DNA of 64,000 nt, from contig CAZBND010000005.1 of NCBI GenBank assembly GCA_964493415.1, positions 39,076-103,075 on the forward strand, given 5' to 3'. The translations under genes were made by a program, and so were the position numbers. Every line of letters starts with the position of its first letter. Within the stretch, counting starts at the first letter, position 1. This document shows, in pieces, positions 1,640 through 27,036 of this stretch. The stretch is from an uncultured Planctomycetota bacterium. Lineage in GTDB: Bacteria > Planctomycetota > DG-23 > CAZBND01. The notes under the pieces were generated by a model. It did no database searches and was not told where the DNA came from. It saw nothing but the letters and a program-made list of their open reading frames with translations.

Positions 1640-4600
1640 CTACGGACCAACCAACGCGCCGGCCGAATTGTTCACCTCCGTGATCTCGTCAATCGCGCCT
1701 TCCGGGTCCACCACTGCGTAGATCGTGTGCTCCCGCCCCTCCATATCGTACGGGAACCCCAGCCGAACCGTCTTCGGGTCGAGGTCTATCGGGGCCGCGA
1801 TATGGGGAATGGTCTGCCTGCCTATCTCCTTTCCCCCGGCGGCAGGGTCGCCATCATAGACGATCACGTCCACGTCGCGAGCCGGCTGAGAGCCCACGTT
1901 ATGTACTTTCACTATGAGCTGCTCGCTGGAGGCTGAGAATATGACGTCCTCTCGCGAGATGCCCAAATCCGGCAGCAGCTTCGTGTGCGCGCCGCGGCTG
2001 AGGCGGCTCACCTCCACAACAAACTGCCGTCGCGGCGGAAGCGTGAAGCTGATCGGCACGCCGCGCTGTGGCAGCGTCCACTCATCCACGGACGCTTCGA
2101 CGTCAATCGTCCCGTCTCCCGTTTGGTCGAAGCCCGTCCGCACCAAATAGACGCTACCGGGAGCAAGAACCCAGGGTCTGATGCCAAGCTCCGCAGGCGT
2201 TTCCGTCATGCTGTAGAGCACGACTCTCAGGTTTCGCTCATCACTCACGAGGCACGCGGCAACGCAGTCGCGCGTAAGCCCGGTGTAGGTAACCGCAGCG
2301 TGCTGGGTGCCTCCCGCGCCGTAGCCCGTCAGGGCCCTGAACGGATCGAGCATTCCCGGGATGTATATGCGGTCGGTGGCAAGCGAATCAGCGGTGACGA
2401 CCGGCCAACGCCTTCGCGCTTCGCGGTTGAGAATGGCGCATCCACGCTCTACCGCGTCGAGCGTGGTGACGGGCTCGGGGGTTGCGTCTGCCTTGAGCAT
2501 GTGCTCGATCCGCTGCCAGCCCGTGATCGCAGACCGCCCCGGCTGCTCAGCACTACCCAAAAGCATCCTGCCTGCCCACGCTGGGGAGCCCGGCTCGGGA
2601 TCCTCGATCGGATTGTCCAGGTAGGACTGAGCAAGTTCCGCCTCGCGTCGCATCGGCTCCAGATACTTCTCCTGCCCGGTGCGTTCGTAGGCCCCGATCA
2701 GCAGATCGACAACCGCCTCCCTATACCCTCCCATGCCCTCCCAGTCGTAGTTCACCGTCCCTGGAGCATGGTTCGCCTTGTACCACGCGGGTGAATCCAG
2801 GCCGCCGATTTCCATGGTCTGGAACGCGAATTCGGCCGGCATCACTCCCTCCGGCTTGCCCTTATCAGTGGACATCGAAGCAGCAAGCCATGCATCGGCC
2901 CACAGGTTGAACAGCCTAGCGAGGGTCGGGCTGCCGTTGTACCAGAGCACACTTCGCGCAGGAAGCGCCGGCCTATAGTTAATGCGAGAATCATTTGCTT
3001 GGTATCCGGTTCCCACGCCGACGGCTCCCAGGAAGTTGGCTCGCATTGCGAAGAAGCCCTTGTCGTTGAAGTCCATCCACAGGTCGCGCATCAGCTTTCC
3101 GGTCTTCATCGACCTTTCAATCCAGACGGGGTTCCCGTAATCCAACAGCATCATAACCGGCAGAGGATCGCCGGTGAACTCACCCGTATGTTCCGTATCG
3201 CCGACTCGGGGGAAGAACCCGCTTTCGGTGTCGACCTCTCCCAAGAACCACGCGCCGTCGCTTAAAAGCCGACAGCCTTCAAGCGTCACAGGCGATGCCT
3301 GCGGAGAGATCGCGCCGAAATTGCCGAAGAATCGCAGGGCCTCGACATCGTCCCCCCAGCCGCCGCCAAGCGATCCGTCGGGGAATTGCTTGTTTTCGAA
3401 CCACCATTCGCACAAGTCGAGCATGCGATTGTAGGCTTCCCACAACTGCGCGGCCCACCCTGGAGCTTGCTCGGCGGGCACATGGTATTCGGGGAACGCC
3501 CAATCAGCCCCCGGGGTCCAATCGTCGTAGAGATACAGCCGCACGTATCGGTTTTCGGGAAATTTCTTCTCCACTTCCCGAAGCATGGCAAAGGCCATCC
3601 CGCCGCCCATCATCCACCGGTGGGGCTCGATCATGAAAAGAGCCCGCGCGGCATATACGTTGGCCTTATAGTAATATGGACCCTCACTCATCATCTGGTG
3701 GCACCACGTTACGGCCCGATACAGGCGGAAGTAGGCGTTCTGCCAGTTCGATGCCCTGAACTGGATAGATTTGCTCATGACTTCGGCCGATACGGTGCGG
3801 TTGTTGACCAGGTCGGCGGCTCTTGCAAATATCTCGGTCAACCTCCGCAGCTCCACGGCACGGTAGTCATTCGGGTGCTCCGCCACGTATGAATCCAGCT
3901 CAGTCCCCAGCGTGGGCAGAAGCTCTGCTTCCCTATCGTTCTCAGGATGTCCCGCCAGCCAGGCGTAGCCCTGTGCGCGCGCGTACGCCAGAGCACCGCC
4001 CTCGACGGCGTGGAGCAACTCTTCGGCCTGAGCGAATTCTTGGTGGTTGAAGTGTTCCGCCACCTTCGCCAGCGCTCTGATTTCGGTCTCTTGGGTCCCT
4101 GCCGGAACGCCCGCCGGGTCGAAGCTCAACCCGCTGTCCGTCATCGAAAAAGGCTCCGGGCGGTGCTCATACACTTCAACGCCCATGACGCTGTTCCGCG
4201 TAAACGGCAACCAAAGGTGCCCCGGGCCCTGACTTCGCTTGCCCTTGACCCTCCCCGGCACCAGCCACGAGTCCTGCGGAACGAGAGGGTTTGCCCCAAG
4301 CCACGCGTCGTATTCGCTCTGATCCCCACGGAAGGAGAGGAGTAGACCGCCTTCGGGGAAATCGACATCGAATCGCAGCGGAAGGTAGAAGCCGTAGAAT
4401 AGGATGTCTTCGGGATTACGTCCCTTGATGGCGTATGGAGCGAGGTTCTTCGCTATCAACCGGTCGTTGGCGTAGATGGAAATGGAGCCGAGCGGGTCGA
4501 GCATATTCCCGATCGTCGCCACAACGTGATACCTGCCGGGCGGAAGGTCGATTCGGAACTCCATCACCTTACCACCCTGGACGCCGTCGCGATTCAGAGG

Positions 4601-4891
4601 GGTGACGTTCCTGTCGTAGAGAATGTCCCTGAAGATATGCCAGTGAGCCTCGCGTTCGGGAGTGTCCGTCGTAAATCCCGTGAGACCCGTACCAATCCAA
4701 CCGTACCCAACCTCGGCCGAGTACGTGTTTTCGGACGTAACGCGGACATAACCTGGAGCCACGGGCGAGCCTTCGGTCCCCATGTCGAACCTTAAGGGTA
4801 CGAAGTCCCCGGTAGCTCCAGCAAAGACACCCCCTCCCACAAACAAGAAAAGCAAAAGCGCCAGTCCTACGATACGCGATTCAGCAAACAC
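1640..4891 (-). CDS. Large secreted protein, paralog 1 of 3 (~1083 aa); N-terminal beta-sandwich-like region, central conserved core, C-terminal CARDB-like domain; candidate glycan-active enzyme
   Basis: GTG start preceded by GGGAGG. Signal peptide MFAESRIVGLALLLFLFVGGGVFAGA. Blocks shared with the ORFs at 17090-20305 and 22074-25310 include FDMGT..SPVAPGY, WW.ENKQFPDGSLGGGWGDDVE, ANDSRINYR and LWYN.SPTLA. The C-terminus (VHNVG...VVDP.GEIDEITE.NN) is CARDB-like. Confidence 0.75.
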   Translation of the reverse strand: MFAESRIVGLALLLFLFVGGGVFAGATGDFVPLRFDMGTEGSPVAPGYVRVTSENTYSAEVGYGWIGTGLTGFTTDTPEREAHWHIFRDILYDRNVTPLNRDGVQGGKVMEFRIDLPPGRYHVVATIGNMLDPLGSISIYANDRLIAKNLAPYAIKGRNPEDILFYGFYLPLRFDVDFPEGGLLLSFRGDQSEYDAWLGANPLVPQDSWLVPGRVKGKRSQGPGHLWLPFTRNSVMGVEVYEHRPEPFSMTDSGLSFDPAGVPAGTQETEIRALAKVAEHFNHQEFAQAEELLHAVEGGALAYARAQGYAWLAGHPENDREAELLPTLGTELDSYVAEHPNDYRAVELRRLTEIFARAADLVNNRTVSAEVMSKSIQFRASNWQNAYFRLYRAVTWCHQMMSEGPYYYKANVYAARALFMIEPHRWMMGGGMAFAMLREVEKKFPENRYVRLYLYDDWTPGADWAFPEYHVPAEQAPGWAAQLWEAYNRMLDLCEWWFENKQFPDGSLGGGWGDDVEALRFFGNFGAISPQASPVTLEGCRLLSDGAWFLGEVDTESGFFPRVGDTEHTGEFTGDPLPVMMLLDYGNPVWIERSMKTGKLMRDLWMDFNDKGFFAMRANFLGAVGVGTGYQANDSRINYRPALPARSVLWYNGSPTLARLFNLWADAWLAASMSTDKGKPEGVMPAEFAFQTMEIGGLDSPAWYKANHAPGTVNYDWEGMGGYREAVVDLLIGAYERTGQEKYLEPMRREAELAQSYLDNPIEDPEPGSPAWAGRMLLGSAEQPGRSAITGWQRIEHMLKADATPEPVTTLDAVERGCAILNREARRRWPVVTADSLATDRIYIPGMLDPFRALTGYGAGGTQHAAVTYTGLTRDCVAACLVSDERNLRVVLYSMTETPAELGIRPWVLAPGSVYLVRTGFDQTGDGTIDVEASVDEWTLPQRGVPISFTLPPRRQFVVEVSRLSRGAHTKLLPDLGISREDVIFSASSEQLIVKVHNVGSQPARDVDVIVYDGDPAAGGKEIGRQTIPHIAAPIDLDPKTVRLGFPYDMEGREHTIYAVVDPEGAIDEITEVNNSAGALVGP

Positions 4892-5114: not shown

Positions 5115-7076
5115 GTGGAGAAGCTTATGCGCGGCCGGGAAACACAGGCCCACGAGTTCCCATTGTGGGTGAAGGCAGAAGGGATATACGCAGCTAGTTC
5201 CCACGAGCCGCTGAAGTTCTATCGACGCATCGGCAATAACCCCGAATGGCGCGAGCAATGGTACTACGCGCATCGCACTGAAGAGTTCGCCAGGGAGATG
5301 GCGGATGCCGGGTTCAACCACGTCAACTTCGCCTTCTTCAAAGGGTTCGGTCTGGAGGAGGAACGCGAAGAGATCGACGATCTCGCAAAGCGAATCCCGG
5401 TCTTCCACAAACACGGCATCAAGGTGCGCGCGTACATCCAGTTCGGTTCACTGATGTACGAGACGTTCCTGAAGGAAGTGCCTGAGGCGAGAGACTGGTG
5501 CAGGCGAGATCCCCAGGGCCGCATAATCACTTACCGCTGGGGCAACTTGTATTGGAGATGGCGTCCTTGTCACAGCAAGCCGGGGTTCCGCGCCTATCTC
5601 AAGAAGTGCGTTGACCGCGCCATCGAAATCGGCGTCGACGCCATCGGCTTCGACAACGTCAAGCAAGGATGGGGAGGAGACTACCACGACTTCTGCTATT
5701 GCGAAACCTGCCGGTCGCTGTTTCGAAGCTACCTGGTCAACAACTTAGCCGGCCGCGCGGACCTCATCGGGATAAGTACATTCGAGAATGTGGAACCTCC
5801 TTTGCAGCATCACGTCAACGACGTCATCTGCCAGGCATGGGCGCGATTCCAGGACGAGCGCCTTCGCGACAACGTGCGCGAGATGTACGAATACGCCAAG
5901 AGCAAGAAGCCGGACGTGCTGATCAACACTAACGGCTTGCCGGCCCACGTATCAGGTGACTCCACGGACACAAGCACATGGGAAGGCCACTACTCGCCGC
6001 GAATCGAAAACGATGAAATCATCTGCGGAGCCCATGCTTATAAGCACGGGAACGACCGGGACATCTATGTTTACGCGTCGGTTGTCGCTCCTGAATTCAG
6101 TGAAGAAGACCTGAATTCGCCGGAGAGTGCAGGGCTGCGAACGATGAAGCTCGGCGTTGCTTGCGCCACGGCATTCGGCGGTCACGGCGTTTTCGTCCCC
6201 GCGATTATGTCGAAGATGCGTGGCGCGAAGTTCCCACTGGACGCGCCGGCGTTCGCAGAGACCTGCCGCCGCTACTTCGGCTTCCTGAGACAGCACCGGC
6301 GGCTCTTTTATCCTCTCGAATCCGCGGCCAACGTGGCTATCTATCTCAACTGGCCGTCCTGGACTCTGGACCGGGAACGTGTGACACCTGTCCACAACCT
6401 CGTGGAGCAGCTCTTCATAAGACACCATGTTCTTTTCGACATTTTCTATCTGAGGCCGCCGGAAAGCCTGCGAAAATATGACCTGTTGGTTTTTCCCGAG
6501 ATCAGATGCATGTCTGACCGCGAGTTGGGTGACATCACCAAGTTCATCCAAGCAGGGGGCGCGGTGCTGTCGTTGGGCCAGACTTGTCAGTGCGACGAGC
6601 ACTTCAGAGAGCGGCGGGCGGCCGGGTTGACGAAAGCTCTGAGCCACGGAGGGCAGAAAGTAAAATCTCTGCGAATCCCGCATGAGGCGTTGGAGCCGGG
6701 AGGCTGGAGGACGTTTGGCAGCCTTATCGAGGTAGCGCGCGACCTGTTGGGCGAAAAAGGTCTGCCGATCGAATTCGACGCGCCTGACACTTTAGCAGTC
6801 GATGCGTACAGGATACGAGGAACCGGCAAATCGACCGTTAGCCTGCTCAACTTCGATCCCGATCAGAAGGCGAAGGCCGTCGTGCTGCGGCTTTCAGGCA
6901 AGCGGTTCGGAGATGTCAAGCGCGCCTGGTGCGCGAGCCCCGACAGTCACTCGGCGGAACTTTCCCCACTGCCTGTCAAATCAGACCTGGAGGTTGCCGC
7001 ATTCACTGTCCCCGAAGTGGATATCTTCTCGATCGTAGTCACAGAAGGTTCCGCGTCTCGGCATGGAGCCGATTAG
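5115..7076 (+). CDS. GH42-like glycoside hydrolase (TIM barrel, beta-galactosidase-like) with a CxCxxC zinc-site-like motif
   Basis: 653 aa, matching GH42 length and architecture. N-terminal region (NPEW..W..EEFAREMADAGFNHVNF) resembles the GH42 catalytic barrel. A CHSKPG...CYCETC Cys cluster is present. Transcribed divergently from paralog 1. Confidence 0.5.
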   Translation: MEKLMRGRETQAHEFPLWVKAEGIYAASSHEPLKFYRRIGNNPEWREQWYYAHRTEEFAREMADAGFNHVNFAFFKGFGLEEEREEIDDLAKRIPVFHKHGIKVRAYIQFGSLMYETFLKEVPEARDWCRRDPQGRIITYRWGNLYWRWRPCHSKPGFRAYLKKCVDRAIEIGVDAIGFDNVKQGWGGDYHDFCYCETCRSLFRSYLVNNLAGRADLIGISTFENVEPPLQHHVNDVICQAWARFQDERLRDNVREMYEYAKSKKPDVLINTNGLPAHVSGDSTDTSTWEGHYSPRIENDEIICGAHAYKHGNDRDIYVYASVVAPEFSEEDLNSPESAGLRTMKLGVACATAFGGHGVFVPAIMSKMRGAKFPLDAPAFAETCRRYFGFLRQHRRLFYPLESAANVAIYLNWPSWTLDRERVTPVHNLVEQLFIRHHVLFDIFYLRPPESLRKYDLLVFPEIRCMSDRELGDITKFIQAGGAVLSLGQTCQCDEHFRERRAAGLTKALSHGGQKVKSLRIPHEALEPGGWRTFGSLIEVARDLLGEKGLPIEFDAPDTLAVDAYRIRGTGKSTVSLLNFDPDQKAKAVVLRLSGKRFGDVKRAWCASPDSHSAELSPLPVKSDLEVAAFTVPEVDIFSIVVTEGSASRHGAD

Positions 7077-7705
7077 AAAAGCGTATAGATGAACGGCGCC
7101 AGGGCGGAACTTTGGACGAAGAAGAGAAGAAGGCCCAAGATGACCAGGACCACCAACACCGGCACCAATACAAAGTGCCTGCGTCTGATAAAGAACCCAA
7201 GGACGATCATGGGCAATACCATCATCCGCAACGCTCGCCGCGACCCGGAAAGGTCTGCCAACATGACGATCGTCTCTTTGGGAGTCCATCCCTCCATTCC
7301 ATCAGGTGGGTCGCTCTTCCAGGCGTAGATCGGGTGGGAACCCTTGCTCACGCGCATCAACTTCCCCACCGGCCAGAAGAGAACAAAGTAGATCAAGGTA
7401 AGGAGAATCACAAAGACGAAGTTTCCGATAGCTCTGGACAGCCTGCGCACGGTCCTCTCGGGCAGGGACCACGCGGAGGGGAACACGACGGTGAGAATGA
7501 CGCCGCCCGCACCGAATATCATAATTCCCTTCCAAAGCACATCCTTCGCCCCGACTACGAGGAAGTAGTTGACGGAGCCGACGAGAAGCATCAAGCTGCT
7601 GACAAGCAGTCCGAACACTATCTGACTTCTCAGTAGGTGCCTGGCCCGCCGGCCGGCCAAGCGCTCCAAGTACCCTTGCGCCTCAGTCAAGGTCGAACCT
7701 CCCAA
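7073..7705 (-). CDS. Small polytopic membrane protein of unknown function, co-operonic with the carbamoyltransferase (possibly SxtJ/SxtK-like)
   Basis: Four or more hydrophobic helices. Its start overlaps the carbamoyltransferase stop by about 20 nt. Confidence 0.55.
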   Translation of the reverse strand: MGGSTLTEAQGYLERLAGRRARHLLRSQIVFGLLVSSLMLLVGSVNYFLVVGAKDVLWKGIMIFGAGGVILTVVFPSAWSLPERTVRRLSRAIGNFVFVILLTLIYFVLFWPVGKLMRVSKGSHPIYAWKSDPPDGMEGWTPKETIVMLADLSGSRRALRMMVLPMIVLGFFIRRRHFVLVPVLVVLVILGLLLFFVQSSALAPFIYTLF

Positions 7706-9524
7706 GCCACTCGGCTCGCTCCCTTTCGTTCATGGGCCGTCTTTTCTGCTCCTCTCTAAGGAGTAAACGGTCGCCCACCACGAGACGGTCGATCTCTGTC
7801 GCCATGAAACAGCGATAGGCATCCCCCACGGTGTTCACAATGGGTTCACCCCGGACGTTGAAGGACGTGTTGATGACGACGGAACACCCCGTCAGTTCCT
7901 TGAAGGCCCGCAAGACTCCGTGGATGAAGGGGTTGCGCTCTCTGTCGACAGTCTGAATACGCGCGGAGTAGTCGACGTGAGTGACCGCCGGCACGTCGGA
8001 GCGAGGCACCTTCAGAAGATCGATCCCCCATAGTTCTTTTTCTTCCTCCGTGAGCGCTCGCCACCTCCCCTCGACAACGGGGTAAGCCAGCAGCATGTAG
8101 GGGCTCTCCTGGCGGGCGTCGAAGTAGTCCCCAGTATCTTCGAGCAACACCATGGGGGCGAACGGTCGAAAACTTTCCCGGAACTTGATCTTCATGTTCA
8201 TGTGCGACTGCATTTTCGGAGAACGTGCATCCCCCAGGATGGATCGTGCTCCAAGGGCACGCGGCCCCCACTCCATCCGCCCGCGCGCGATGGCCACCAC
8301 CTTACCGTCCGCGATCATGCGGGCCATCTCGCGCTGAAGCTCGACCTCCGGAAGTGTCCGCCACACTCCCCCCAGGCTGCGCAAAATCCTGTCGTGTTCA
8401 TCGCATGCCGGCGGTATGTCCGGTCCCAAGAACGACCCCTCCATGCTGTCTTGCGAAGCGGGCGCTCGTCCGTTCCCCAGAACGCTGTGCCACATCCACA
8501 ACGCCGCTCCCAAGGCTCCGCCGGCGTCCCCGGCGGCAGGCTGTATCCACAATTTGTCGAAAGGATTGTTCACAGAAAGCCGGCCGCAAGAGACCACGTT
8601 CAGCGCGACTCCGCCTGCAAGCACGAGATCCTTCATGCCCGTTTCATCGTGCACATGCCGAGCCATCTTCTCCACGACCTCGTTGAGCACCTCCTGTACA
8701 CTTGCCGCCAAGTCCATCTCGCGCTGGGTGATGAGAGTCTCGGGCTTCCGAGGCGGGCCGCCGAATACCCTCTCGAATGCCTTGCCGGTCATGGTGAGCC
8801 CACCCAGGTAATTGAAATACTTCTGGTTAAGCCGGACAGAACCATCGTCCTCGACTGAGACGAGCTCGTTCCGAATAGTGTCCGCGTAGATAGGCCTCCC
8901 GTACGGGGCCAAGCCCATGAGCTTGTACTCGCCGCTATTGATCTTGAAGCCCGTGAAGTATGTGAAGGCCGAGTACAACAATCCAAGGGAATTGGGAAAG
9001 CGAAAGTGCCTCTTCAGCTCAACCTTATTTCCTCGCCCGATACCGTAGGTTGCGGTCGACCACTCCCCCACGCCGTCAATGGTGAGAATCGCCGCTTCCT
9101 CGAAAGGGGAAGGGAAGAAGGCGCTGGCGGCGTGAGAGAGGTGGTGATCGCAGAACGACACCCTCTTGCCAATGCCCATCTCGCCGGCTATGTTGCGCTC
9201 CATCCAGATGTTCTTGGTCAGCCAGGGCGGCATGGCCGCGAGGTAGCTCCTGATGCTGCGTGGGGCTGTGAGATGGTATGTCGTCAGGAGCCTCTCGAAC
9301 TTGACCAGCGGGTTCTCGTAAAAAATGACATGGTACAGATCGTTCTCATGCACTCCCGCCTCGTCCAGGCAATAGGCTATAGCCTTGTGGGGGAAAGAGG
9401 AATCGCCCTTTACACGGGAGAAGCGCTCTTCCTGGGCGGCCGCCACGATACGCCCGTCCCTCAACAACGCCGCCGCCGAATCGTGATAATAGGCCGATAT
9501 GCCAAGAATCAAGCAGCTCTTCAT
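7683..9524 (-). CDS. NodU/CmcH-family O-carbamoyltransferase
   Basis: N-terminus MKSCLILGISAYYHDSAAALLRDGRIVAAAQEERFSRVKGDSSFP is the hallmark of carbamoyltransferases (YrdC/Kae1-like N-terminal domain plus HypF-like C-terminal domain). 613 aa. Confidence 0.85.
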   Translation of the reverse strand: MKSCLILGISAYYHDSAAALLRDGRIVAAAQEERFSRVKGDSSFPHKAIAYCLDEAGVHENDLYHVIFYENPLVKFERLLTTYHLTAPRSIRSYLAAMPPWLTKNIWMERNIAGEMGIGKRVSFCDHHLSHAASAFFPSPFEEAAILTIDGVGEWSTATYGIGRGNKVELKRHFRFPNSLGLLYSAFTYFTGFKINSGEYKLMGLAPYGRPIYADTIRNELVSVEDDGSVRLNQKYFNYLGGLTMTGKAFERVFGGPPRKPETLITQREMDLAASVQEVLNEVVEKMARHVHDETGMKDLVLAGGVALNVVSCGRLSVNNPFDKLWIQPAAGDAGGALGAALWMWHSVLGNGRAPASQDSMEGSFLGPDIPPACDEHDRILRSLGGVWRTLPEVELQREMARMIADGKVVAIARGRMEWGPRALGARSILGDARSPKMQSHMNMKIKFRESFRPFAPMVLLEDTGDYFDARQESPYMLLAYPVVEGRWRALTEEEKELWGIDLLKVPRSDVPAVTHVDYSARIQTVDRERNPFIHGVLRAFKELTGCSVVINTSFNVRGEPIVNTVGDAYRCFMATEIDRLVVGDRLLLREEQKRRPMNERERAEWLGRFDLD

Positions 9525-11301: not shown

Positions 11302-11445
11302 TGTTGAACAGATATTATAGTGCCCTTCCCCCGTTGGTCAAGTGCGTCGCCCACACCCGGTTTCTTCTCGTGCGTCGGGTGTTGCTTGACTTGGGTTCCC
11401 TCTCGACTAATATGTGAGTGTACGATGCTTTCAAGGAGGCTGACA

Positions 11446-12750: not shown

Positions 12751-12754
12751 GGAT

Positions 12755-16952: not shown

Positions 16953-17089
16953 ACGGCATTCCGCCCGCCGGTACGTAGCTCAGAGCACCGCAGCTCCGTG
17001 GTGATCGCCCTCGGTTCGACTCGGCAGCAAGTTCAACGCGCATCCGGCCACCGGGCTCCTGCACACAGCCGTCTCTGCCGGCTCCGCCG

Positions 17090-20000
17090 CTACATCCCGA
17101 CCGCCAGTGCGGACTTGTTGTTCGATTCTGTTATCTCGTCTATCTCCCCGTCCGGGTCGACGACAACTAGGATATCACGGGGAGGCGATTCCAGAGTCCA
17201 CGGAATGCCGACGCGCAGAGTTTGTGGCAAAAGGTCCAGCGGAGCAGGCAGCTTGATCCCCACACCCCTGCCCACTTCGGTCATGCCGCTCTCGCCCACA
17301 TCGTACACAGCTACCGAGAATCGTGTCGCCTCCGCCGAACCGATGTTGTGGACTCTCACCTTCACGAGTCTGCTGAGTTGCTCGTACTCGACGTCCTCAG
17401 GACTGATGGCGAGGTCCGGCAGCAGCGAGGGCGCATCGCCCGAAGCTATCTGCTTAAGCTCAACGATGTAGGGCGTTCGCGGAGGCAGCGTCACGGGAAC
17501 GGGCTGGCCGCGGAACCTTATGCGCTGCTGCCCCGTCCCTGCGATCTCGTCGGGCTCGCCGTTCTCGTCCAAGTCGGGCCCGTACATCAGCTCATACGAA
17601 GCCCCCGGCTCCAGCAGCCACGGCCGAATGCCGCACTCCCGTTCCTTCGCCCGGAAATTGTACAGTGCAACCTTGAGCTGCTTTGTCCCGGATGTCAGCA
17701 CGACAGCAGCGAACTGGCGTCCTGGACCCACGTAGGTCACTTGAGGGTCCAGCCCGCCGGACGCACCCGCCGCGGTCATTGCCGTGTACGCCGCGTGAAG
17801 CCCCGGCCAGCCTATGCGGTCGGTGGCCAACGCGTCCGTGGTGGAAATCGGCCAGCGCTCCCGCGCACCTCTGATGCAGGTCTCGTTACGGCGACGCGCA
17901 TCGGGCAAGGACGTCACGCTCGGCTCGCCCCCCTCCCCCAATCCGAGGGTCCGCTGCAAACGCGCCCACAACTGCACGGCTCCCCCAAGTTGCCTCCCCG
18001 CCCATTCGGGGGACCCCGCTTCCGCCTCACCTTCCGACTGCCGTGCCCGCGCGGCCAGTTCCGCTTCGAGCCTCAGCGGCTCGAGGAACGCCCTGTCCCC
18101 GCTGCGCTCGTAAGCGCCCACCAAGAGGTCCGTAATGTAGTCGTGATATCGGCTGTCCCAATCATAGTTGACGGTTCCTCCGGCATGGTTCGCGATGAAC
18201 CACGAGGGTGACTCGGTGCCGCCGATCTCACCGGTTTCGAATCCGATTTCGGAGGGGATTACGCCGCTGGGTTTCCCCTTCTCAGCGGACATTGACGCTT
18301 CCAGCCAAGCTTTCGCCCACCCGTCGAACAGCGCCGCGACCGAGGGATTGCCGCTGTACCACAGGACCGACCGAGCCGGAAGGGCGCATCGGTAGTTTAT
18401 CCGCGAGTCATTCGCCTGGAGCCCCGTGCCCACCCGGGTTGCCCCGACCATGTTGGAGCGGAATAGATATTGACCGCGGTCGTTATGGTCCATCCAGAGA
18501 TCGCGCATGAGCTTCGCCACCTTGAGGCCAAGCTCCGTCCACGTCGGGTTGCCGTAGTCCAGGATCACCATGGTGGGAATAGTGTCGCCCGTCCATTCGC
18601 CCGTGTGCTCGGCGTCGCCCATCCCGCCGAAGAACCCCGCCTCGGGATCCATGTTGGGGGACGCGAGAGCCCCGTTGACTATCCCAGCGCAGAGCTCGAC
18701 CATCTTCTCCGAGGCGTCCGGGCAGATGGAGCCGTATGTGCCGAACAGCCGGAGGATCTCCACGTCGTCTCCCCACCCGCCGCCCACCGATCCATCCGGG
18801 AATTGCTTGTTCTCGTACCACCATTCGCCCAGGTCGAGGCAGCGATTGTACGCCTCGTACACGGCTGCGGCCCACTCGGGCGCCCCCTCCGTGGCCGGAG
18901 AATAGTCGGGATAGTTGGGCCACTCGGGGCCGGGCGACCAGTCATCGTACAGGTACAGCCGGACGAAGCGGTTGTTCGGGAACTTGGTTTCGACCTCTCT
19001 AAGCAGATCGGCGGCCTTGCCGGATGCCATGACCCACCGGTGCGGGTCGAACATGTATAGCCCGCGGGCCTCATGAATCTTGGCCTTGAGGTAAACGGGC
19101 TCTCCGCGATGAATGAGGTCCAACTTCCCTATGCCCCTGAAAACCCGCCAGTAACCGTTCTCCCACGACGTATCCGCATGCCGCAAATCCGGGGGCAGGG
19201 CCATCTGATCCGAGAATGAGACCGCTCTATGCAGTATCGAATCTATGCCCTGATTGAAATTGACAAGAACCTCCAACAGATGCTCCGCCCGTTCATCTCC
19301 CGGATTCGCCTTGTTGTAGGCCTCAACCGCGGCGATCGCCTTCGGCGCAAGTTCCAGCTCCCGCTCGTAGTCGGGATTGCCTGCCAGGAACGCGTAGGCC
19401 CTGGCTTTCGCATATCCAAGCAGCGCGTCGCTTATGCCGTCCAGCTTCCGCTCCGCCTCAACGAATCGCTGGACGTTATACGCCTGCAGTGCTTGCTCAA
19501 TCGTGCCAACCTGCGGAACGCTGGCAGAGGCGGGAATCGCAGTGCGATCCAGCACCAGCGCGCCGTCAGCTTCAACTATCGGCTCGGGCGCGTAACGATA
19601 GACCTCTACTCCGAGAACGCTGTTTGTCGTAAACGGCAGGCCGATATCCCTGTAGGGCGCATGGGGCTTCAGCCGTCTTCCCTGTCTGACGAGCCAGGAT
19701 TCGGGCGAGGGCTTCTGCTCCTCCTCCGCCAACCACTTGTCATAGTCTGATTGGTCCCCCGCGAAGTTCAGCGCAAGCCCCTCGTTCCCCACGCTCACCG
19801 GGAAACGCACGCGCTGGTAGTAGCCGTACCAGTCCCCTTGGGCCGAGCCGCCCCGCGAAGCCCAGTGCTTGGCGTTGACGTTCTTCACCATCAACTCGCC
19901 GTTGGCGTAAACCGACATGGAGCCCAGGCCCCGCGTCAAATCCCCCAGCGTAACAACCACCACGTAGTCACCCTCACGGAGATCTACCTTGAAGGTCATG

Positions 20001-20305
20001 TCTTCCGTATCGCGAACTCCATCCCGATTCAGGGCGGTCGCGGTCTTATCGAACAAGGTATCCCTGAAGACGAACCAATGCGCCAGTCGGGCGGGTCTTT
20101 CCGACTCGAATGATTCGTGTCCCGTCTCGAGCCACCCGTAGCCGAGTTCAGGGGAATAGAGGGTCCTCCCCTCTACCTTGATAAAGCCGTCTAACACGCG
20201 CGATGTGCCCGTACCCATGTCAAACTTGGCTGGGGCGGAAACGACCGCCCACGCTGAGCCCGCCACAAGCACGGCCACAATCAATATCGCCACTTTCGAC
20301 CTCAT
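17090..20305 (-). CDS. Large secreted protein, paralog 2 of 3; CARDB-like C-terminus
   Basis: The likely start is the second ATG (MRSKVAILIVAVLVAGSAWA), because GGGAGGGGG lies just upstream of it. Same conserved blocks as paralogs 1 and 3. Confidence 0.75.
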   Translation of the reverse strand: MRSKVAILIVAVLVAGSAWAVVSAPAKFDMGTGTSRVLDGFIKVEGRTLYSPELGYGWLETGHESFESERPARLAHWFVFRDTLFDKTATALNRDGVRDTEDMTFKVDLREGDYVVVVTLGDLTRGLGSMSVYANGELMVKNVNAKHWASRGGSAQGDWYGYYQRVRFPVSVGNEGLALNFAGDQSDYDKWLAEEEQKPSPESWLVRQGRRLKPHAPYRDIGLPFTTNSVLGVEVYRYAPEPIVEADGALVLDRTAIPASASVPQVGTIEQALQAYNVQRFVEAERKLDGISDALLGYAKARAYAFLAGNPDYERELELAPKAIAAVEAYNKANPGDERAEHLLEVLVNFNQGIDSILHRAVSFSDQMALPPDLRHADTSWENGYWRVFRGIGKLDLIHRGEPVYLKAKIHEARGLYMFDPHRWVMASGKAADLLREVETKFPNNRFVRLYLYDDWSPGPEWPNYPDYSPATEGAPEWAAAVYEAYNRCLDLGEWWYENKQFPDGSVGGGWGDDVEILRLFGTYGSICPDASEKMVELCAGIVNGALASPNMDPEAGFFGGMGDAEHTGEWTGDTIPTMVILDYGNPTWTELGLKVAKLMRDLWMDHNDRGQYLFRSNMVGATRVGTGLQANDSRINYRCALPARSVLWYSGNPSVAALFDGWAKAWLEASMSAEKGKPSGVIPSEIGFETGEIGGTESPSWFIANHAGGTVNYDWDSRYHDYITDLLVGAYERSGDRAFLEPLRLEAELAARARQSEGEAEAGSPEWAGRQLGGAVQLWARLQRTLGLGEGGEPSVTSLPDARRRNETCIRGARERWPISTTDALATDRIGWPGLHAAYTAMTAAGASGGLDPQVTYVGPGRQFAAVVLTSGTKQLKVALYNFRAKERECGIRPWLLEPGASYELMYGPDLDENGEPDEIAGTGQQRIRFRGQPVPVTLPPRTPYIVELKQIASGDAPSLLPDLAISPEDVEYEQLSRLVKVRVHNIGSAEATRFSVAVYDVGESGMTEVGRGVGIKLPAPLDLLPQTLRVGIPWTLESPPRDILVVVDPDGEIDEITESNNKSALAVGM

Positions 20306-20377
20306 ATGTCCCCCTCCCTTCAAACCTGAAATCCCTTAGCGGCCGGAATCCGACAACACTGCGCGCAACGTCAGCAA

Positions 20378-21814
20378 CTAATCCACGAGCGCCTTCCTCG
20401 ATGCGAGGAACTCCTCAGGCGTGCCGATCTCCCGCAGATACGAGATTAACTTCTCGTTGATATTTCCGGCGACGTCCTTGTGCTCGTCATAAATGTTGCT
20501 GTTCTGCAGGGGATCGTTCCGGTTGTTGAAGAGCATGGGCTTGAGTTCCTGGTCTATAAGCTTCGTGTGCTTCCTCGGAATCCCGTCGACGACCCGGTCC
20601 TCGTAGTCCTCGGTCTGCACGTCCGGAGCCCCGCCGTATATGAAGGTCCATTCGTCCGTGGTCACCGTGCTTCGGGCGTAAGGATTCGCCCCCCTCCATA
20701 GAGAAGGAGATGACACCGCGAGTTCCCGAATCCTCTCGGCCTTCCCGTTCATCAGAGGCACCATCGACTTGCCGTGAACCTCGTCCGGCGCTTCCAGTCC
20801 GCACACGTCCATAATGGTTGCCGTAATGTCCACCGGCTGCACGAGAGCATGAGAGCGCACCTGCTCTTCCTGCCCGGGCATCTTCACGACCAGCGGTATG
20901 TGCGCGATCTCATCAAACAGGGGTATGTACTGCTGGTACTGCGACCGGATCACGGACTTCCCTATGTATCCCCGCTCTCCGATGCAGAACCCATGGTCGG
21001 TCGTAAATATGATCATAGCCTCGTCGTATATCCCGAGCACCTCCAACTTGCGGAGGATATGGCCCACCCAGTGGTCTACCAGCGAGACCTCCCCCCGATA
21101 TCGCGCGCGGCAGTGATTCAGCTCCTCCGGCGTAAGGAAATCGATCTTATCGTACAGCGGGTACTCGATCACCTCGCCTTGGTAGCCCGGGTCGTACATA
21201 TCAACGTACCACTGTGGCGGATCCCACGGCTCGTGCGGATCGAACATGCCCACCCACAGGAAGAAGTCGTCCAGCTTGTAGTTCCTCTCCAGCCAGTGCA
21301 TGGCGCTTGTGGCAACTTTGGCGGGAAGCCAGTCTTCCTCGAATTGACGAAGGGCGTTATTGCGAACGTGCTGGCTGGCGGTGGTGTCGGCGCTGCGCAC
21401 CTTCTCGCGCTTGCAGGGGAAATCCACATGGCGCGGGTCCGTCCGCCACTTGTCCACAGTCTGCCCTCGAATATAGTCCCAGCCGCTGAAGTCGCGGTCG
21501 AAATTGAATCCATGCTGAAATATGTGCGGCGTATCGGAAATCAGCATGGTCGTGTACCCGGCTTCGTTGAGCAGCGACGGCATGGTTTTCGCGTCTCTCG
21601 GCAGCGCCTGCCAGCCGCCACAGGTGAAAGTGTACCGGCCTGTGATGACGTCGGTTCGATGCGGCACTGTCGGAAACGACCCGCAGTACGCGCGGTCGAA
21701 AACGGTCGCCCCCGCACCCAACCCGTCGACATTGGGCGTCTTGACCTCTCTGCTGCCGTACAGGCCCAAATGGTCTCGCCTTAACGTGTCCGAAATGATG
21801 AGCACCACCTTCAA
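20378..21814 (-). CDS. Alkaline-phosphatase-superfamily hydrolase (sulfatase/NPP-like), paralog C; no signal peptide
   Basis: KVVLIISDTLRRDHLG metal-binding block. The nucleophile position reads FPTVPHRTDVITGR (T-x-P-x-R). TTDHGF is present. 478 aa. Confidence 0.7.
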   Translation of the reverse strand: MKVVLIISDTLRRDHLGLYGSREVKTPNVDGLGAGATVFDRAYCGSFPTVPHRTDVITGRYTFTCGGWQALPRDAKTMPSLLNEAGYTTMLISDTPHIFQHGFNFDRDFSGWDYIRGQTVDKWRTDPRHVDFPCKREKVRSADTTASQHVRNNALRQFEEDWLPAKVATSAMHWLERNYKLDDFFLWVGMFDPHEPWDPPQWYVDMYDPGYQGEVIEYPLYDKIDFLTPEELNHCRARYRGEVSLVDHWVGHILRKLEVLGIYDEAMIIFTTDHGFCIGERGYIGKSVIRSQYQQYIPLFDEIAHIPLVVKMPGQEEQVRSHALVQPVDITATIMDVCGLEAPDEVHGKSMVPLMNGKAERIRELAVSSPSLWRGANPYARSTVTTDEWTFIYGGAPDVQTEDYEDRVVDGIPRKHTKLIDQELKPMLFNNRNDPLQNSNIYDEHKDVAGNINEKLISYLREIGTPEEFLASRKALVD

Positions 21815-22073
21815 TCGATTCTCCCTTTCCAGGCTGGTTGCCTACAGAGCCTGATCAAGTCGCTGCGTTCGGAAAACGCCGCGGCGACCAGGCAGCTATT
21901 CTAGCCCTTAGAGGACTGCCTGCCAACCGTGGATTCGCTCGCTGCCGCCACATCCGCTCATCGGACGATTGTGAGTTGACACCCCCGACACTTGCGCTAT
22001 ACTCATGGAGTATTTCCCGTCCTGCGCGCGGATCAGTCGTAACCGGCTTTCAGCAGCAAGGGAGGTTACAGAC

Positions 22074-25000
22074 ATGCGGAAGGTGGACCGTAGGAAGATG
22101 CTCGTTTGTTTGGCGGCATTCTTGGCTGCGTTTACAGCCGCCCGAAGCTGGGCCGCGCCGCTGAAGTTGGACATGGGTACGGCCGATTCGCCCGTGGCCC
22201 CCGGCTTCGTCCGCGTCACAGCGGACCAGCGTTACGATGCCGCAAAGGGCTTTGGCTTCGTCGAAGGACCCTACACTTCGTTCAACACCACAGGTCCGTC
22301 GCCGCATGTCAACTTCGTGAGCCCCAGTTCGGCGACGGTGTACGAAGAGGGCGTGACGGATTTGAACCGCGATGGGCTGTGGTCGGATGGGGATTTGGTG
22401 TTCCGCGCCGACCTTCCCAACGGCAAGTACAGGGTATGGCTCACAATCGGCCACATGAACAAAGTCCTGGGCTCGATACAGGTCTACGCCAATGGGAAGC
22501 TGATAGCCAAAGACATCCAGGTGAGGCACATACGCTGGAGGTCTGGCCAAGATCAGGGCTACGGCTGGTTTCTTCCTATTCGGTTCACTGCGGATATCGA
22601 GCAAGGCTACCTTGAGATAAGGCTGCGCGGAGACGACACAGAGTATCAGAGACTTCTAGCGATTGAAAACGAGAAGCCCAGGCCCGTATCCTACGGAACC
22701 TATCCGGATCACCCTGAGAAAAAGCCCCGCGAGTACACGCTGCTGACAGACATTGGACTCCCCTTCGCCGGGAACTCCATCCTCGGACTGGAGATATACC
22801 CGTATCAGCAGCCGCCGGTGTTGGTGGCGGAAGATTCGCTGAACATCGCCATGACGGGAAGGCTCCCTTCCCCGGAGCTTCAGCAGGCAGTAAGGCTCTT
22901 CAACGCCGGTCGGTATGCCGAAGCTTGCGCCGCCGCCGAGAAGATCGAAGACTCGCATAAGTACGAGCGCGGAATCATATACCTGGCCCTGGCCGGGCGT
23001 CCCGAACTTGATAACGAAAGAGAAATGGTGAAAAAGGCCGAGGCCGATCTCGCCGCCGTTGTGACGGAAAGCCCCGAGGACCATGCAGCCAAGGAGCTGC
23101 TCTACCTGGCGAGGCAGCTCAGAGACGGCGTCGAGCGCTTCCATCACAGAGGGGACGCCGGCGTGAACGGCTACTCCATGGTGAACATGGGTTCCATGTC
23201 CCTCGCCGCCCTCCAGCCGGAGGACCCTGTTTACTGGAAGGGGCAAATATACCGGGCCCGGATATTCTACATGGTTCAGCCGCACCGTTGGAGCTGGGTC
23301 TCGGGTGCCGGGATGGACATCCTCCTCGAGGTCGAGAAGAAGTGGCCCAACAACCGCTTCGTCAAGCTCTACCTCGACGGGGAATGGGAGGAAACGGAGG
23401 ACTGGAAAATCGGAGACTACGTCACGGGCACCGAAGGCGCGCCTGATTGGGCCGTGGCCTGCCGCGATGCGTGGAACCTCAACCTCGACCATGCGGAGTG
23501 GTGGATCGATAACAAGCAGCGCCCGGACGGCTCGCTCGGCGGAGGCTGGGGAGACGACGTGGAATTGATCGTCGATTTCGCGAATTACGTCTTTGTCAGC
23601 GAAGGCGTCCGACCCATCGTGCTCGAAGGGGTGAAGAATCTCGTCGAAGGCAACTGGAAATACTCCGGGATAGACCAGGAGGCGGGCTTCTACTGGGGGA
23701 TTGCCGACGTGGGCCACTCGGCCGAGCCGACCGCCGATACCCTCCCGATGATGATCTTCCTCGATTACGGCAGCCCCGTGTACGTGGAGCGCTGCATGAA
23801 GAGCGGAAAGCTCATGCGGGACCTGTGGACTGCAATCAATCCGAACGGCCATCGGCATTTCCGGTCGGATTACCTGGGCGCGTTCGGCGTAAAAGGAGGA
23901 GCCGTGGCAAACGACGGCTGGCTTAACTACCGTGCCGTCGTGGCTGCGGAGAAAGTGCTCTGGTACAACAGCAGCCCCACACTGGCGAAGCTCTTTGACG
24001 AGTGGGCGACCGCACTGCTTGAAGACACTATGAAGAGCGGGAGAGGCAAACCGGCAGGCGTCATGCCGTCCGTAGTTTCCTTCGCCGATTGCACTTTGGG
24101 AGGTGTGGACTCCCCTACATGGTACACTCCGAACAACGCCGACGGGTTTAACCCCGGGTGGGGACACAACTACTCCAATCCGGCAGGCTACCCGCTGAGC
24201 CTTCTAGGCGGCGCATATGACCGTACCGGCGACGCCCGCTTCCTCGAGCCGTTCCGCATCCAGGCCGAACTCGCCCTCAAGGCCAAGGCAAGCCCCGTCG
24301 AGAAGCCCGAAGAGGGCTCCTTCGAATGGGTGTGTGCGGGCCTTCTCGAATCCGGAGCGCCCGAATTGTGGGAGTTCATCCAGGATAGGCACCTGGGCTC
24401 AGACCCGGCGGGAGCGCGGTTCATGACCCGCGAAGATGCAAGGGAGGAAGCCGACTGGGTACGCCTTAGAATCAAAATGCGCTGGCCCATCGACACGACG
24501 GAGGCCCTCGTGACCGACAGAGTGGGATTCGGGGGGATCACCAATGCCGTGAGGGTTTACACCGGCGGCGGCGTCTTCGTCCGCCAACCCATTGTCAATT
24601 ACGTGGACATCGGCAAGGACTTCGCAGCTTTCCCCCTCCGCGCCGACCGCTCCCATCTGCGCGTGCTGCTCTACAGCTTCTACGACGAAGAGAGGGAAGT
24701 CGGCATCAGGCCGTGGCAACTCGCACGCGGCACCAAGTACAGGATGGCGGCCGGCCCGGACAAGGATGGAGACGAAATTCCCGACGAAGTTATCCAATCC
24801 TCGACCTTTGATTTCGAGCATAGAGGCCAGACCGTCCGCTTCCGGCTTCCCCCAAGAACGGAGACGGTGGTAGTCATCGAGCCGGCCGCAGAGGTTGCCC
24901 TCGGGCATGATACGCTCTCGCCGGACCCGGCCATCGGCGTCGGAGATACAGAGTACTGGAGTGACAGAAATTCCCTGATCGTGCGAGTGCACAACATTGG

Positions 25001-25310
25001 CGCTGCTCCCGTCAAGGACCTCTCCTTGCAGGCGTGGGAGGGCACGCCGGAGGACGGCAGGCTCATCGGCACATCATTCATACCGTACATCGAAGCGCCG
25101 AACGACCTCACCGCACAAACCGTCAGGGTGGCCTTCGGATGGAAGCCGGCGGAGGAGAGCTCGAACACGGTCTGCGTGGTGCTCGATCCGGACGACGAAA
25201 TAGACGAAATCACCACGAAGAATAACCGTTTCGTCTACGAACTCGACCTTCAGTCGGTCTCCCCTGCGGCAGCCAAGCCTAACGAGCAGCAGGCGCAACC
25301 ATCGTCATAG
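22074..25310 (+). CDS. Large secreted protein, paralog 3 of 3; CARDB-like C-terminus
   Basis: ATG 22074 preceded by AGGGAGG. Signal peptide MRKVDRRKMLVCLAAFLAAFTAARSWA. Same conserved blocks as paralogs 1 and 2. Divergent from paralog C. Confidence 0.75.
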   Translation: MRKVDRRKMLVCLAAFLAAFTAARSWAAPLKLDMGTADSPVAPGFVRVTADQRYDAAKGFGFVEGPYTSFNTTGPSPHVNFVSPSSATVYEEGVTDLNRDGLWSDGDLVFRADLPNGKYRVWLTIGHMNKVLGSIQVYANGKLIAKDIQVRHIRWRSGQDQGYGWFLPIRFTADIEQGYLEIRLRGDDTEYQRLLAIENEKPRPVSYGTYPDHPEKKPREYTLLTDIGLPFAGNSILGLEIYPYQQPPVLVAEDSLNIAMTGRLPSPELQQAVRLFNAGRYAEACAAAEKIEDSHKYERGIIYLALAGRPELDNEREMVKKAEADLAAVVTESPEDHAAKELLYLARQLRDGVERFHHRGDAGVNGYSMVNMGSMSLAALQPEDPVYWKGQIYRARIFYMVQPHRWSWVSGAGMDILLEVEKKWPNNRFVKLYLDGEWEETEDWKIGDYVTGTEGAPDWAVACRDAWNLNLDHAEWWIDNKQRPDGSLGGGWGDDVELIVDFANYVFVSEGVRPIVLEGVKNLVEGNWKYSGIDQEAGFYWGIADVGHSAEPTADTLPMMIFLDYGSPVYVERCMKSGKLMRDLWTAINPNGHRHFRSDYLGAFGVKGGAVANDGWLNYRAVVAAEKVLWYNSSPTLAKLFDEWATALLEDTMKSGRGKPAGVMPSVVSFADCTLGGVDSPTWYTPNNADGFNPGWGHNYSNPAGYPLSLLGGAYDRTGDARFLEPFRIQAELALKAKASPVEKPEEGSFEWVCAGLLESGAPELWEFIQDRHLGSDPAGARFMTREDAREEADWVRLRIKMRWPIDTTEALVTDRVGFGGITNAVRVYTGGGVFVRQPIVNYVDIGKDFAAFPLRADRSHLRVLLYSFYDEEREVGIRPWQLARGTKYRMAAGPDKDGDEIPDEVIQSSTFDFEHRGQTVRFRLPPRTETVVVIEPAAEVALGHDTLSPDPAIGVGDTEYWSDRNSLIVRVHNIGAAPVKDLSLQAWEGTPEDGRLIGTSFIPYIEAPNDLTAQTVRVAFGWKPAEESSNTVCVVLDPDDEIDEITTKNNRFVYELDLQSVSPAAAKPNEQQAQPSS

Positions 25311-27020: not shown

Positions 27021-27036
27021 CCTGCCGGAGACACGA

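Follow-up and report, generated by a model that had tools for sequence, protein, structure and literature searches.

The proteins A, B and C, encoded by three paralogous genes in the window (the whole 64,000-nucleotide stretch of DNA analysed), are probably multidomain enzymes, secreted or exposed on the cell surface, from a family with no earlier annotation, with a six-hairpin (alpha/alpha)6 barrel as the catalytic core (rough probability 0.6). From the predicted structure, this widespread family is a credible candidate for addition to the carbohydrate-active enzymes as a new family.

Three secreted paralogs and their gene neighbourhood

The genes of the locus are arranged as follows:

239..1600, minus strand: PF00884 gene, 40 nt downstream of A; leaderless, with Thr (LPTLPQR) at the formylglycine position
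1640..4891, minus strand: paralog A, full gene with the stop codon counted in, 1083 aa (ORF list and translation)
5115..7076, plus strand: weakly GH42-like protein, signal peptide lacking (PF02449, E 7e-8, 32.7 bits with the cutoff at 21 bits)
7683..9524, minus strand: carbamoyltransferase (PF02543/PF16861)
9521..11041, minus strand: GDSL-type esterase (PF13472), overlapping the carbamoyltransferase gene by 4 nt
11320..12750, plus strand: ABC solute-binding protein (PF01547)
12755..13648 and 13636..14478, plus strand: two ABC permeases (PF00528)
14514..16952, minus strand: PF00884 gene downstream of B, 812 aa; N-terminal membrane anchor, TLPAL motif with Thr and no Arg
17090..20323, minus strand: paralog B, 1077 aa; architecture as in A, every invariant residue retained
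20378..21814, minus strand: PF00884 gene upstream of B and divergent from C; leaderless, with Thr (FPTVPHR) at the formylglycine position
22005..25310, plus strand: paralog C, 1101 aa; architecture as in A, every invariant residue retained
25450..26928, minus strand: MFS transporter (PF07690), convergent with C and the probable edge of the locus

A preliminary description of this DNA had reported three secreted paralogs of about 1090 aa, and the ORFs indeed encode 1077-1101 aa and are 38-46% identical throughout (full-length identity of 46% for A/B and 38% for A/C), the BLASTP comparison of A with C being far above chance (642 bits, E = 0.0, identities 398/1060). The N-termini of all three look like Sec signal peptides, and in the AlphaFold2 model of A residues 1-25 formed a lone helix of low confidence. 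The start of B is probably an internal Met 6 codons into the ORF, and that of C is likely the Met at 22074. The sequence blocks said to be identical among the paralogs were all present in A, but C carried conserved variants of them, such as LDMGT, ADVGHSAE and ANDGWLNYR, so that strict identity did not hold there.

The paralogs and their neighbours showed an operon-like arrangement, on the same strand with 40-140 nt spacing. PF00884 genes directly flank A, B and C, in accordance with the alkaline-phosphatase-superfamily gene announced beside each paralog; the GH42-like enzyme and the sugar ABC importer mentioned in the same description were also found, the former by its weak PF02449 match, with no match in the PDB sequence search, and the latter as a solute-binding protein and two permeases (11320-14478), with no ATPase gene in the locus. 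The term PUL-like is appropriate in a loose, non-Bacteroidota sense, since import is assigned to ABC and MFS systems and no SusC/SusD-like gene occurs among the ORFs of 1-27 kb.

Domain architecture and predicted fold

The AlphaFold2 model of paralog A (pLDDT 91.2, pTM 0.89) comprised five parts, preceded by the signal peptide:

4817..4891, minus strand: predicted signal peptide (aa 1-25), from the hydrophobic N-terminus in the sequence
4121..4795, minus strand: N-terminal beta-sandwich (aa 33-257), YxiM/malectin/CBM-like, putatively carbohydrate-binding
3527..4090, minus strand: TPR-like helical arm (aa 268-455), from DSSP of the model
2306..3526, minus strand: (alpha/alpha)6 barrel (aa 456-862), putatively catalytic, carrying the ten near-invariant residues
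1997..2293, minus strand: beta-sandwich C-terminal to the barrel (aa 867-965), from DSSP of the model
1643..1969, minus strand: CARDB domain (aa 975-1083)

The CARDB profile PF07705 was matched above its gathering score, bearing out the CARDB-like C-terminus noticed earlier, while the window proteins scored under the gathering threshold (27 bits) of the AGA-YXIM galactose-binding-like domain PF21254, and Pfam matches to TPR were weak and restricted to a few of the 42 diverse members scanned. For the core, of about 400 aa, an (alpha/alpha)6 barrel like that of many sugar-cleaving enzymes is predicted with confidence, the fold that had been put forward as a possibility: about 12 helices form six hairpins in which long and short loops alternate, as in six-hairpin glycosidase-like proteins.

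With the full-length model, Foldseek gave only beta-sandwich and Ig matches together with global alignments devoid of meaning (complement C3b and transglutaminase, for example); these were discarded, and the search was then run with a barrel-only model. The best match of the barrel was an AGE-family glucose-2-epimerase (E 4.5e-4, TM 0.45, 14% identity), and cellobiose 2-epimerases and mannose/sulfoquinovose isomerases were prominent in two fold searches. The resemblance stops at the level of the fold (8-14% identity, TM about 0.45), and the fold neighbours include non-hydrolytic proteins, namely AGE epimerases, LanC-like proteins and prenyltransferases. A class II terpene cyclase or LanC-like protein was rejected because the paralog is secreted and CBM-bearing, the Foldseek probability was low (0.6-0.77), and neither a DxDD nor a Zn-ligand motif was present.

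These epimerase matches would suit a non-degradative six-hairpin enzyme, either an AGE-like epimerase/isomerase or a transglycosylase, that remodels an extracellular glycan, possibly the bacterium's own exopolysaccharide. The invariant His568 of the family and the carbamoyltransferase of the locus, a usually biosynthetic enzyme, point in the same direction, and GH76-fold proteins include transglycosylases, such as the fungal Dfg5/Dcw1. Such a role is nevertheless quite unlikely: AGE enzymes, small and located in the cytoplasm, have a single domain and take free sugars as substrates, whereas the paralogs are secreted, measure about 1100 aa and carry CBM-like and CARDB modules; the several His residues that characterize AGE active sites are not mirrored in a family with one invariant His only; and a GH2/GH172 fusion, together with GH78, GH172, sulfatase and importer neighbours, favours catabolism.

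Searches for a known family

The statement that no catalytic family could be assigned was corroborated by Pfam, NCBIfam and PDB sequence searches, which returned nothing for residues ~250-965, and the proxies used for CAZy (Pfam-A 2025, NCBIfam r20, the source names, and the whole PDB by sequence and by fold) were all negative for a GH or PL family. Even among the 42 diverse members at E <= 10, the central domain had no Pfam family, and the matches in the helical region (TPR, Pectate_lyase_2 once and C5-epim_C once) were not counted as evidence, being isolated and non-recurrent. The GH76 profile PF03663 matched neither A, B and C nor these 42 members (E <= 10), and GH76 chains were absent from the matches in PDB sequence and profile searches; likewise, there was no match to PF07470 or to GH88/GH105 family sequences, and none in Pfam or the PDB sequences to the AGE superfamily (PF07221, GlcNAc 2-epimerase). 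Pfam, NCBIfam, PDB sequence and fold searches returned no peptidase and no other family unrelated to carbohydrates; a confident match of that kind had been named as contrary evidence in the preliminary description. Literature searches found no matching description of a family with such an architecture; GH195, from a sulfated-mannan paper, was dismissed as GH99-like and unrelated.

Near-invariant residues of the barrel

Across 241 sequences, down to ~26% identity, ten barrel residues were at least 97% conserved (D514, D515, E517, D565, H568, E571, R640, K679, D840 and R841), all retained in A, B and C. The mapping of conserved acidic residues, proposed earlier as a check, found the candidate catalytic carboxylates preserved. 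In the N-terminal two-thirds of the barrel the near-invariant residues lie in long inter-helix loops or in the first turn of the next helix, and the order of secondary structures suggests that they share one barrel face, as in six-hairpin glycosidases, and would cluster in a pocket. The parity-based assignment of D840 and R841 to a face was set aside as unreliable, since the hairpin count is interrupted by two short helices, h10 and h11. If the substrate is polyanionic, an active site with seven invariant acidic residues would be unexpected in the absence of a bound metal ion.

This pattern bears on whether the barrel is catalytic at all. The paralogs might be surface glycan-binding or adhesion proteins in which it serves as a scaffold or lectin, as the adhesion-type CARDB and Ig-like modules, the lack of a match to a catalytic family and the heterogeneous contexts of distant members would allow. 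However, around twelve charged residues keep at least 97% conservation down to ~26% identity and are concentrated in the loops of one face, a pattern that marks an active site and not a scaffold, and all three paralogs retain them despite long divergence (38-46% identity), making a non-catalytic role very improbable.

The same residues could be accommodated by a polysaccharide lyase performing beta-elimination on uronate-containing, possibly sulfated glycans, in which case the base/acid would be H568 or a Tyr, neutralization of the carboxylate would fall to R640, K679 or R841, and Ca2+ would be bound by the acidic cluster. This is unlikely, as the top structural neighbours were GH/epimerase barrels and not PL8/12/15/17/21 toroids, no Tyr is invariant (Y639 only ~41% and Y651 ~90% conserved), the Pfam matches were isolated and non-significant, and no GH88/GH105-type unsaturated-uronyl hydrolase, the usual partner of a PL, was seen in the window.

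Size, distribution and genomic context of the family

Homologues numbered only 4 by single-sequence search, because of a word-index limitation, at least 156 by profile search, and 1049 50%-identity clusters by exhaustive HMMER. All the members found came from uncultured bacteria of at least six phyla (Planctomycetota, Acidobacteriota, Verrucomicrobiota, Hydrogenedentota, Armatimonadota and Poribacteria) and were named only "hypothetical" or "CARDB". One MAG contained at least 20 full-length copies; this copy-number expansion resembles that of polysaccharide-degrading gene families. An exact-sequence look-up retrieved no contig for paralog C or for P0005.

In the 2610-aa member P0148, the domain and CARDB are fused to GH2, a lambda-carrageenase-type beta-propeller and GH172, and other long members carry extra PKD, Big and Laminin_G_3 modules, which are typical of secreted glycanases. 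Moreover, relatives in other phyla adjoin signal-peptide-bearing sulfatases with the canonical CxPxR motif, GH172, a GH2-propeller protein, GH78, GDSL and GFO/IDH/MocA oxidoreductases. Sulfatase-family genes were moderately enriched beside family genes (10/142 adjacent genes versus 15/594 other genes; OR 2.9, p = 0.012), an association that was not universal (21/74 loci within 10 kb) and was absent from distant members (26-30% identity), whose neighbours showed no consistent glycan context.

Thr-type PF00884 neighbours

The formylglycine position is occupied by Thr in 3/3 PF00884 genes of the window (T-L-P-Q-R, T-V-P-H-R and T-L-P-A-L) and in at least 111 of the 120 closest homologues, which makes the earlier label "alkaline-phosphatase superfamily" preferable to the database term "sulfatase". 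The best PDB relatives were S1 sulfatases, phosphonate monoester hydrolases and choline sulfatases (E ~1e-22), and the window proteins resemble S1 sulfatases (SulfAtlas S1) in their PF00884 plus SGSH_C architecture and in the retained P-x-R and T-G parts of the motif. In contrast, S1 sulfatases convert the Cys/Ser of (C/S)-x-(P/A)-x-R to formylglycine, whereas the window proteins have Thr and two of the three are leaderless. According to the SulfAtlas authors, Thr cannot yield formylglycine, and such PF00884 proteins are not to be taken as sulfatases without evidence (PMC5066984). Judging from their sequences, none of the proteins adjoining the paralogs is a true formylglycine sulfatase, and two of them are predicted to be cytoplasmic; the substrate may therefore be devoid of sulfate altogether. 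The large leaderless Thr-type PF00884 clade may also inflate "sulfatase" counts in such genomes.

Proposed function and significance

If A, B and C are enzymes with the barrel as catalytic core, the N-terminal YxiM/malectin-like beta-sandwich, perhaps with the CARDB and Ig-like modules, would hold a complex extracellular polysaccharide, probably ester-decorated (sulfated or otherwise anionic), whose glycosidic bonds would be cut by the barrel in a pocket formed by the long loops of one face. The carboxylates of D514-D515-x-E517 and D565-x-x-H568-x-x-E571 could supply the acid/base and the nucleophile or water-activating base, and R640, K679 and R841 may bind the substrate, possibly through its anionic groups. 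The oligosaccharides would then enter through the MFS carrier or through the ABC system whose genes lie between A and B. Their processing in the cytoplasm would fall to further products of the locus, namely the GH42-like protein, the GDSL esterase and the leaderless Thr-type esterases of the alkaline-phosphatase fold.

A bolder proposal, for which the odds fall slightly short of even, is that the locus founds a truly new GH/PL family with a six-hairpin barrel and a D-D-x-E / D-x-x-H-x-x-E site, strongly expanded in uncultured Planctomycetota-like bacteria (at least 20 copies per genome) and found in at least six phyla, directed at a class of complex, ester-decorated environmental polysaccharide without a known depolymerase and paired with unrecognized cytoplasmic Thr-nucleophile "sulfatase-like" esterases. 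If catalytic, the family would bring to light a large set of glycan-processing enzymes, with more than 1000 50%-identity clusters and dozens of copies per individual genome, that CAZyme-based metagenome inventories of carbon cycling would miss because every member is annotated as "hypothetical" or "CARDB". The confident AlphaFold2 model, the small number of invariant positions and the three intact paralogs offer a testable basis for enzyme discovery.

Comparison with known systems

The GH76 alpha-1,6-mannanases (for instance Bacillus circulans Aman6, PDB 4d4a/5m77) share 8-11% identity with the paralog barrel, which is ~70 residues larger, has long beta-hairpin loops and is embedded in an 1100-aa five-domain protein; GH76 enzymes have an adjacent catalytic Asp-Asp pair, and the paralog family has an invariant Asp-Asp pair, D514-D515, that might correspond to it. 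The GH88/GH105 unsaturated glucuronyl/rhamnogalacturonyl hydrolases (PDB 3wiw, 1vd5, 4xuv, 1nc5) show no sequence or profile match to the paralogs; they are single-domain, mostly periplasmic or cytoplasmic proteins of ~370 aa that act on lyase products, whereas no lyase partner was identified in this locus. The AGE superfamily (N-acylglucosamine, cellobiose and glucose 2-epimerases and YihS isomerases; PDB 8h1l, 5zig, 7ag4) comprises cytoplasmic, single-domain enzymes with His-based sites and free-sugar substrates, in contrast to the secreted, multidomain paralog family, in which Asp and Glu dominate the invariant set. CARDB (PF07705; PDB 2kut, 3idu, 2l0d) is an accessory domain, uninformative on catalysis, and the sole basis of the database names of the members. 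Finally, the putative counterparts of the N-terminal beta-sandwich are malectin-like and CBM35/6-type modules and the N-terminal domain of YxiM of B. subtilis (PDB 2o14; PF21254), which in YxiM is attached to an SGNH esterase instead of an (alpha/alpha)6 barrel.

The paralogs and their sequence relatives

Three long ORFs, found exactly where the preliminary description had placed them, encode the CARDB-bearing paralogs A, B, and C, which are predicted to be secreted:

1640-4891, minus strand: paralog A, ORF of 1083 aa
17090-20323, minus strand: paralog B, ORF of 1077 aa
22005-25310, plus strand: paralog C, ORF of 1101 aa

Pairwise alignment gave end-to-end identities of 46% (A/B) and 38% (A/C), and A matched C with 642 bits (E = 0.0) in BLASTP. 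Every shared block quoted in that description was present, those in C being conserved and not strictly identical. The N-termini of all three run from positively charged residues through a hydrophobic core to an A-x-A-type site, directly ahead of the conserved FDMGT block, and were read as predicted Sec signal peptides.

The Pfam search confirmed the CARDB-like C-terminus (E 1.5e-7 to 3.8e-4, with paralog C at 21.1 bits, slightly below the 22.7-bit cutoff) and, apart from a sub-threshold N-terminal match to PF21254 (beta-agarase/YxiM galactose-binding-like), assigned no other family to the paralogs. NCBIfam yielded no match, and searches of PDB sequences with a single query and with an 86-sequence profile retrieved CARDB domains and the YxiM N-domain, and no others. 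The central ~700 residues matched no Pfam family at E <= 10 across 42 diverse members. The central region thus had no assignable catalytic family in Pfam, NCBIfam, or PDB sequences, as had been proposed, and nothing in these searches pointed to a peptidase or another non-carbohydrate family.

A single-sequence word-indexed search retrieved 4 relatives, while a profile of the central region recovered >150 full-length homologues of ~1100 aa each, including members in Hydrogenedentota. When 1.84 billion cluster representatives were searched exhaustively with HMMER, 1049 clusters matched at E <= 1e-3 (390 at E <= 1e-30). The homologues were named in their sources "hypothetical protein", "CARDB domain-containing protein", or "tetratricopeptide repeat protein", with no other names. 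With each GTDB species represented by one genome, 207 loci were detected; the 80 best matches were retained, corresponding to 75 distinct loci, all of them in MAGs and distributed among Planctomycetota, Acidobacteriota (Bryobacterales), Verrucomicrobiota, Poribacteria, Armatimonadota, and Latescibacterota. The MAG most closely related to the window, at 66% identity, was the Planctomycetota-labelled CAZUUK01, which carries at least 20 full-length family copies, one tandem triple included, located at L027:5831-16060 and 13 other loci (L004-L049).

Predicted fold and candidate catalytic residues

The full-length AlphaFold2 model of paralog A, built from an 86-sequence alignment, reached a mean pLDDT of 91.2 and a pTM of 0.89, and was composed of the following parts:

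first part of A: signal helix
aa 33-257: N-terminal beta-sandwich
aa 268-455: helical arm
aa ~460-860: helical barrel
aa 867-965: second beta-sandwich
aa 975-1083: CARDB

Foldseek results for the full-length model were swamped by Ig-like domains, and a barrel-only model (aa 456-862; pLDDT 92.9, pTM 0.91) was used instead. Its top match was an AGE-type glucose-2-epimerase (E 4.5e-4, TM 0.45), followed by GH76, cellobiose 2-epimerase, GH8, GH88, LanCL, and GH9. By virtue of these matches, an (alpha/alpha)6 fold, previously suggested as a possibility, is well supported for the modelled core of paralog A. The likeness lies at the fold or superfamily level, and the barrel search supported no specific family. 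The epimerases in this list bear on the alternative that the barrel is a non-degradative epimerase or transglycosylase, which is considered distinctly unlikely.

The conservation of the barrel was assessed in 241 family sequences covering this domain, with identities down to ~26%. Twelve positions were conserved at 97-100%, comprising D514, D515, and E517 in the GGGWGDDVE block, D565, H568, and E571 in the GDxEHTGE block, and R640, K679, P685, W703, and the D840 and R841 of a T-D-R motif, while E592 and D634 were conserved at 92-93%; all of them are kept in A, B, and C. Candidate catalytic carboxylates, whose absence would have spoken against an enzyme, are therefore present, and a non-catalytic binding role of A, B, and C appears most improbable. 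The loops of the domain model are by turns long (10-50 residues) and short (2-5 residues), and along helices 1-8 the conserved charged residues are confined to the long loops and to the opening turn of the helix after each. This secondary-structure order suggests that the conserved charged residues of these eight helices would lie on the active-site face, as in the geometry of six-hairpin glycosidases.

Gene neighbourhood in the window

Three genes of the alkaline-phosphatase superfamily (PF00884) accompany the paralogs, as had been claimed for each of them:

239-1600, minus strand: PF00884 gene, 40 nt after A
14514-16952, minus strand: PF00884 gene, following B
20378-21814, minus strand: PF00884 gene, preceding B and divergent from C

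The GH42-like enzyme and sugar ABC importer described nearby were likewise located between A and B, as a weak GH42-like protein and a solute-binding protein with two permeases, together with a carbamoyltransferase and a GDSL esterase. An MFS transporter closes the locus, and housekeeping genes lie past ~27 kb. Since the GH42-like protein (5115-7076, plus strand) gave a weak match to PF02449 (32.7 bits, residues 47-290) and none among PDB sequences or in NCBIfam, it may represent another poorly characterised TIM-barrel glycosidase family. The NodU/CmcH-type carbamoyltransferase (7683-9524, minus strand) overlaps by 4 nt the gene of the 506-aa GDSL esterase (9521-11041, minus strand) in a locus that otherwise looks catabolic; this pair may point to an involvement of carbamoylated or acylated sugars, or to a partly biosynthetic locus.

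Elsewhere in the window, a LexA repressor gene (26992-27624, plus strand; PF01726 and PF00717) is followed after ~600 nt by the gene of a family-B DNA polymerase (28222-30597, plus strand), possibly an SOS-controlled PolB, whose best NCBIfam models were archaeal-type PolB (PRK05761 group, E 1e-124) and not E. coli Pol II. An ATP:guanido phosphotransferase resembling McsB/arginine kinase (42737-43795, minus strand; PF00217, E 6e-68), unrelated to A, B, and C, lies amid housekeeping genes.

Thr-type PF00884 neighbours

In S1 sulfatases, a Cys or Ser is converted to formylglycine, whereas Thr occupies this position in each of the three PF00884 proteins of the window (LPTLPQR, FPTVPHR, and TLPAL, the last in the 812-aa protein encoded at 14514-16952); it is Thr49 in the 239-1600 protein and Thr58 in the 20378-21814 protein. 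Two of the three begin right at the metal-binding Asp and are therefore without a leader. The same Thr motifs occur in the orthologous pairs of the related MAG, and T-x-P-x-R was observed in the PF00884 genes L004:12463-13938 and L005:7691-9220; in other lineages, the PF00884 neighbours show the canonical CxPxR motif together with a signal peptide. Among the 120 homologues closest to the 239-1600 protein, at least 111 share T-x-P-x-R and the leaderless N-terminus, with the first Asp at median residue 9, and its Thr-type clade comprises >2000 members at E <= 1e-20. This clade is annotated 'sulfatase' and spans Hydrogenedentota, Armatimonadota, Planctomycetota, and Chloroflexota. The Thr-type proteins are probably not formylglycine sulfatases. 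According to the SulfAtlas authors, formylglycine cannot arise from Thr, and such PF00884 proteins should not be named sulfatases without evidence (PMC5066984). For these reasons, the neutral superfamily label of the preliminary description, and its suggestion of phospho- or sulfo-glycans, were apt.

Neighbourhood and fusions in relatives

In locus L001, a canonical sulfatase and the family gene are accompanied by a GFO/IDH/MocA oxidoreductase, GH172, a LacI-type regulator, and a GH2-propeller protein; L002 has canonical sulfatases flanking both sides, and L003 carries GH78, a sulfatase, GDSL, and two family genes in tandem. The metagenomic representative P0148 (2610 aa) fuses the family domain with CARDB, GH2, a lambda-carrageenase-type beta-propeller, FG-GAP, and GH172, a domain set that corresponds to separate neighbouring genes in L001, and other long members have added PKD, Big, or Laminin_G_3 modules.

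In the systematic scan, counted over 74 loci with L011 omitted as a duplicate of L002, sulfatase-family genes made up 10/142 directly adjacent genes versus 15/594 other flank genes (OR 2.9, Fisher p = 0.012), and one occurred <=10 kb away in 21 loci. The neighbours of distant members were heterogeneous. Therefore, the association with glycan and sulfatase genes is real but moderate, and strongest in the subfamily of A, B, and C. Of the 78 fetched loci (L001-L078), 14 have GFO/IDH/MocA oxidoreductases near family genes, and this recurrence suggests that the pathway may include an oxidative step. They lie within a few kb, some with a Tat-like N-terminus, in loci that include distant members (L001, L014, L019, L032, L052, L056, L061, L067, and others).

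Proposed function and comparison with known systems

The favoured reading, given a probability of about 0.6, is that A, B, and C belong to an unannotated six-hairpin family of multidomain enzymes that are secreted and cleave glycans. The CBM-like N-domain would present a complex, probably ester-decorated polysaccharide to the barrel, whose carboxylate-based active site would act on it; the products would be imported via the ABC or MFS systems, and the Thr-type esterases, the GH42-like protein, and the GDSL esterase would complete their processing in the cytoplasm. That the barrel acts on its substrate by a lyase mechanism is unlikely.

The sequence family is undescribed in Pfam, NCBIfam, PDB, source names, and the literature searched, and may correspond to a CAZy family that neither Pfam nor PDB represents. 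The family expansion in CAZUUK01 is comparable to the sulfatase expansions of Planctomycetota. The invariant D514-D515 pair recalls, by its adjacency in sequence, the catalytic Asp pair of GH76, variants of which (D125N, D136A/D137A) figured in the titles of PDB matches from the structural searches. Both the fold and the general logic, a secreted CBM plus barrel enzyme within a catabolic locus, are of known kinds.
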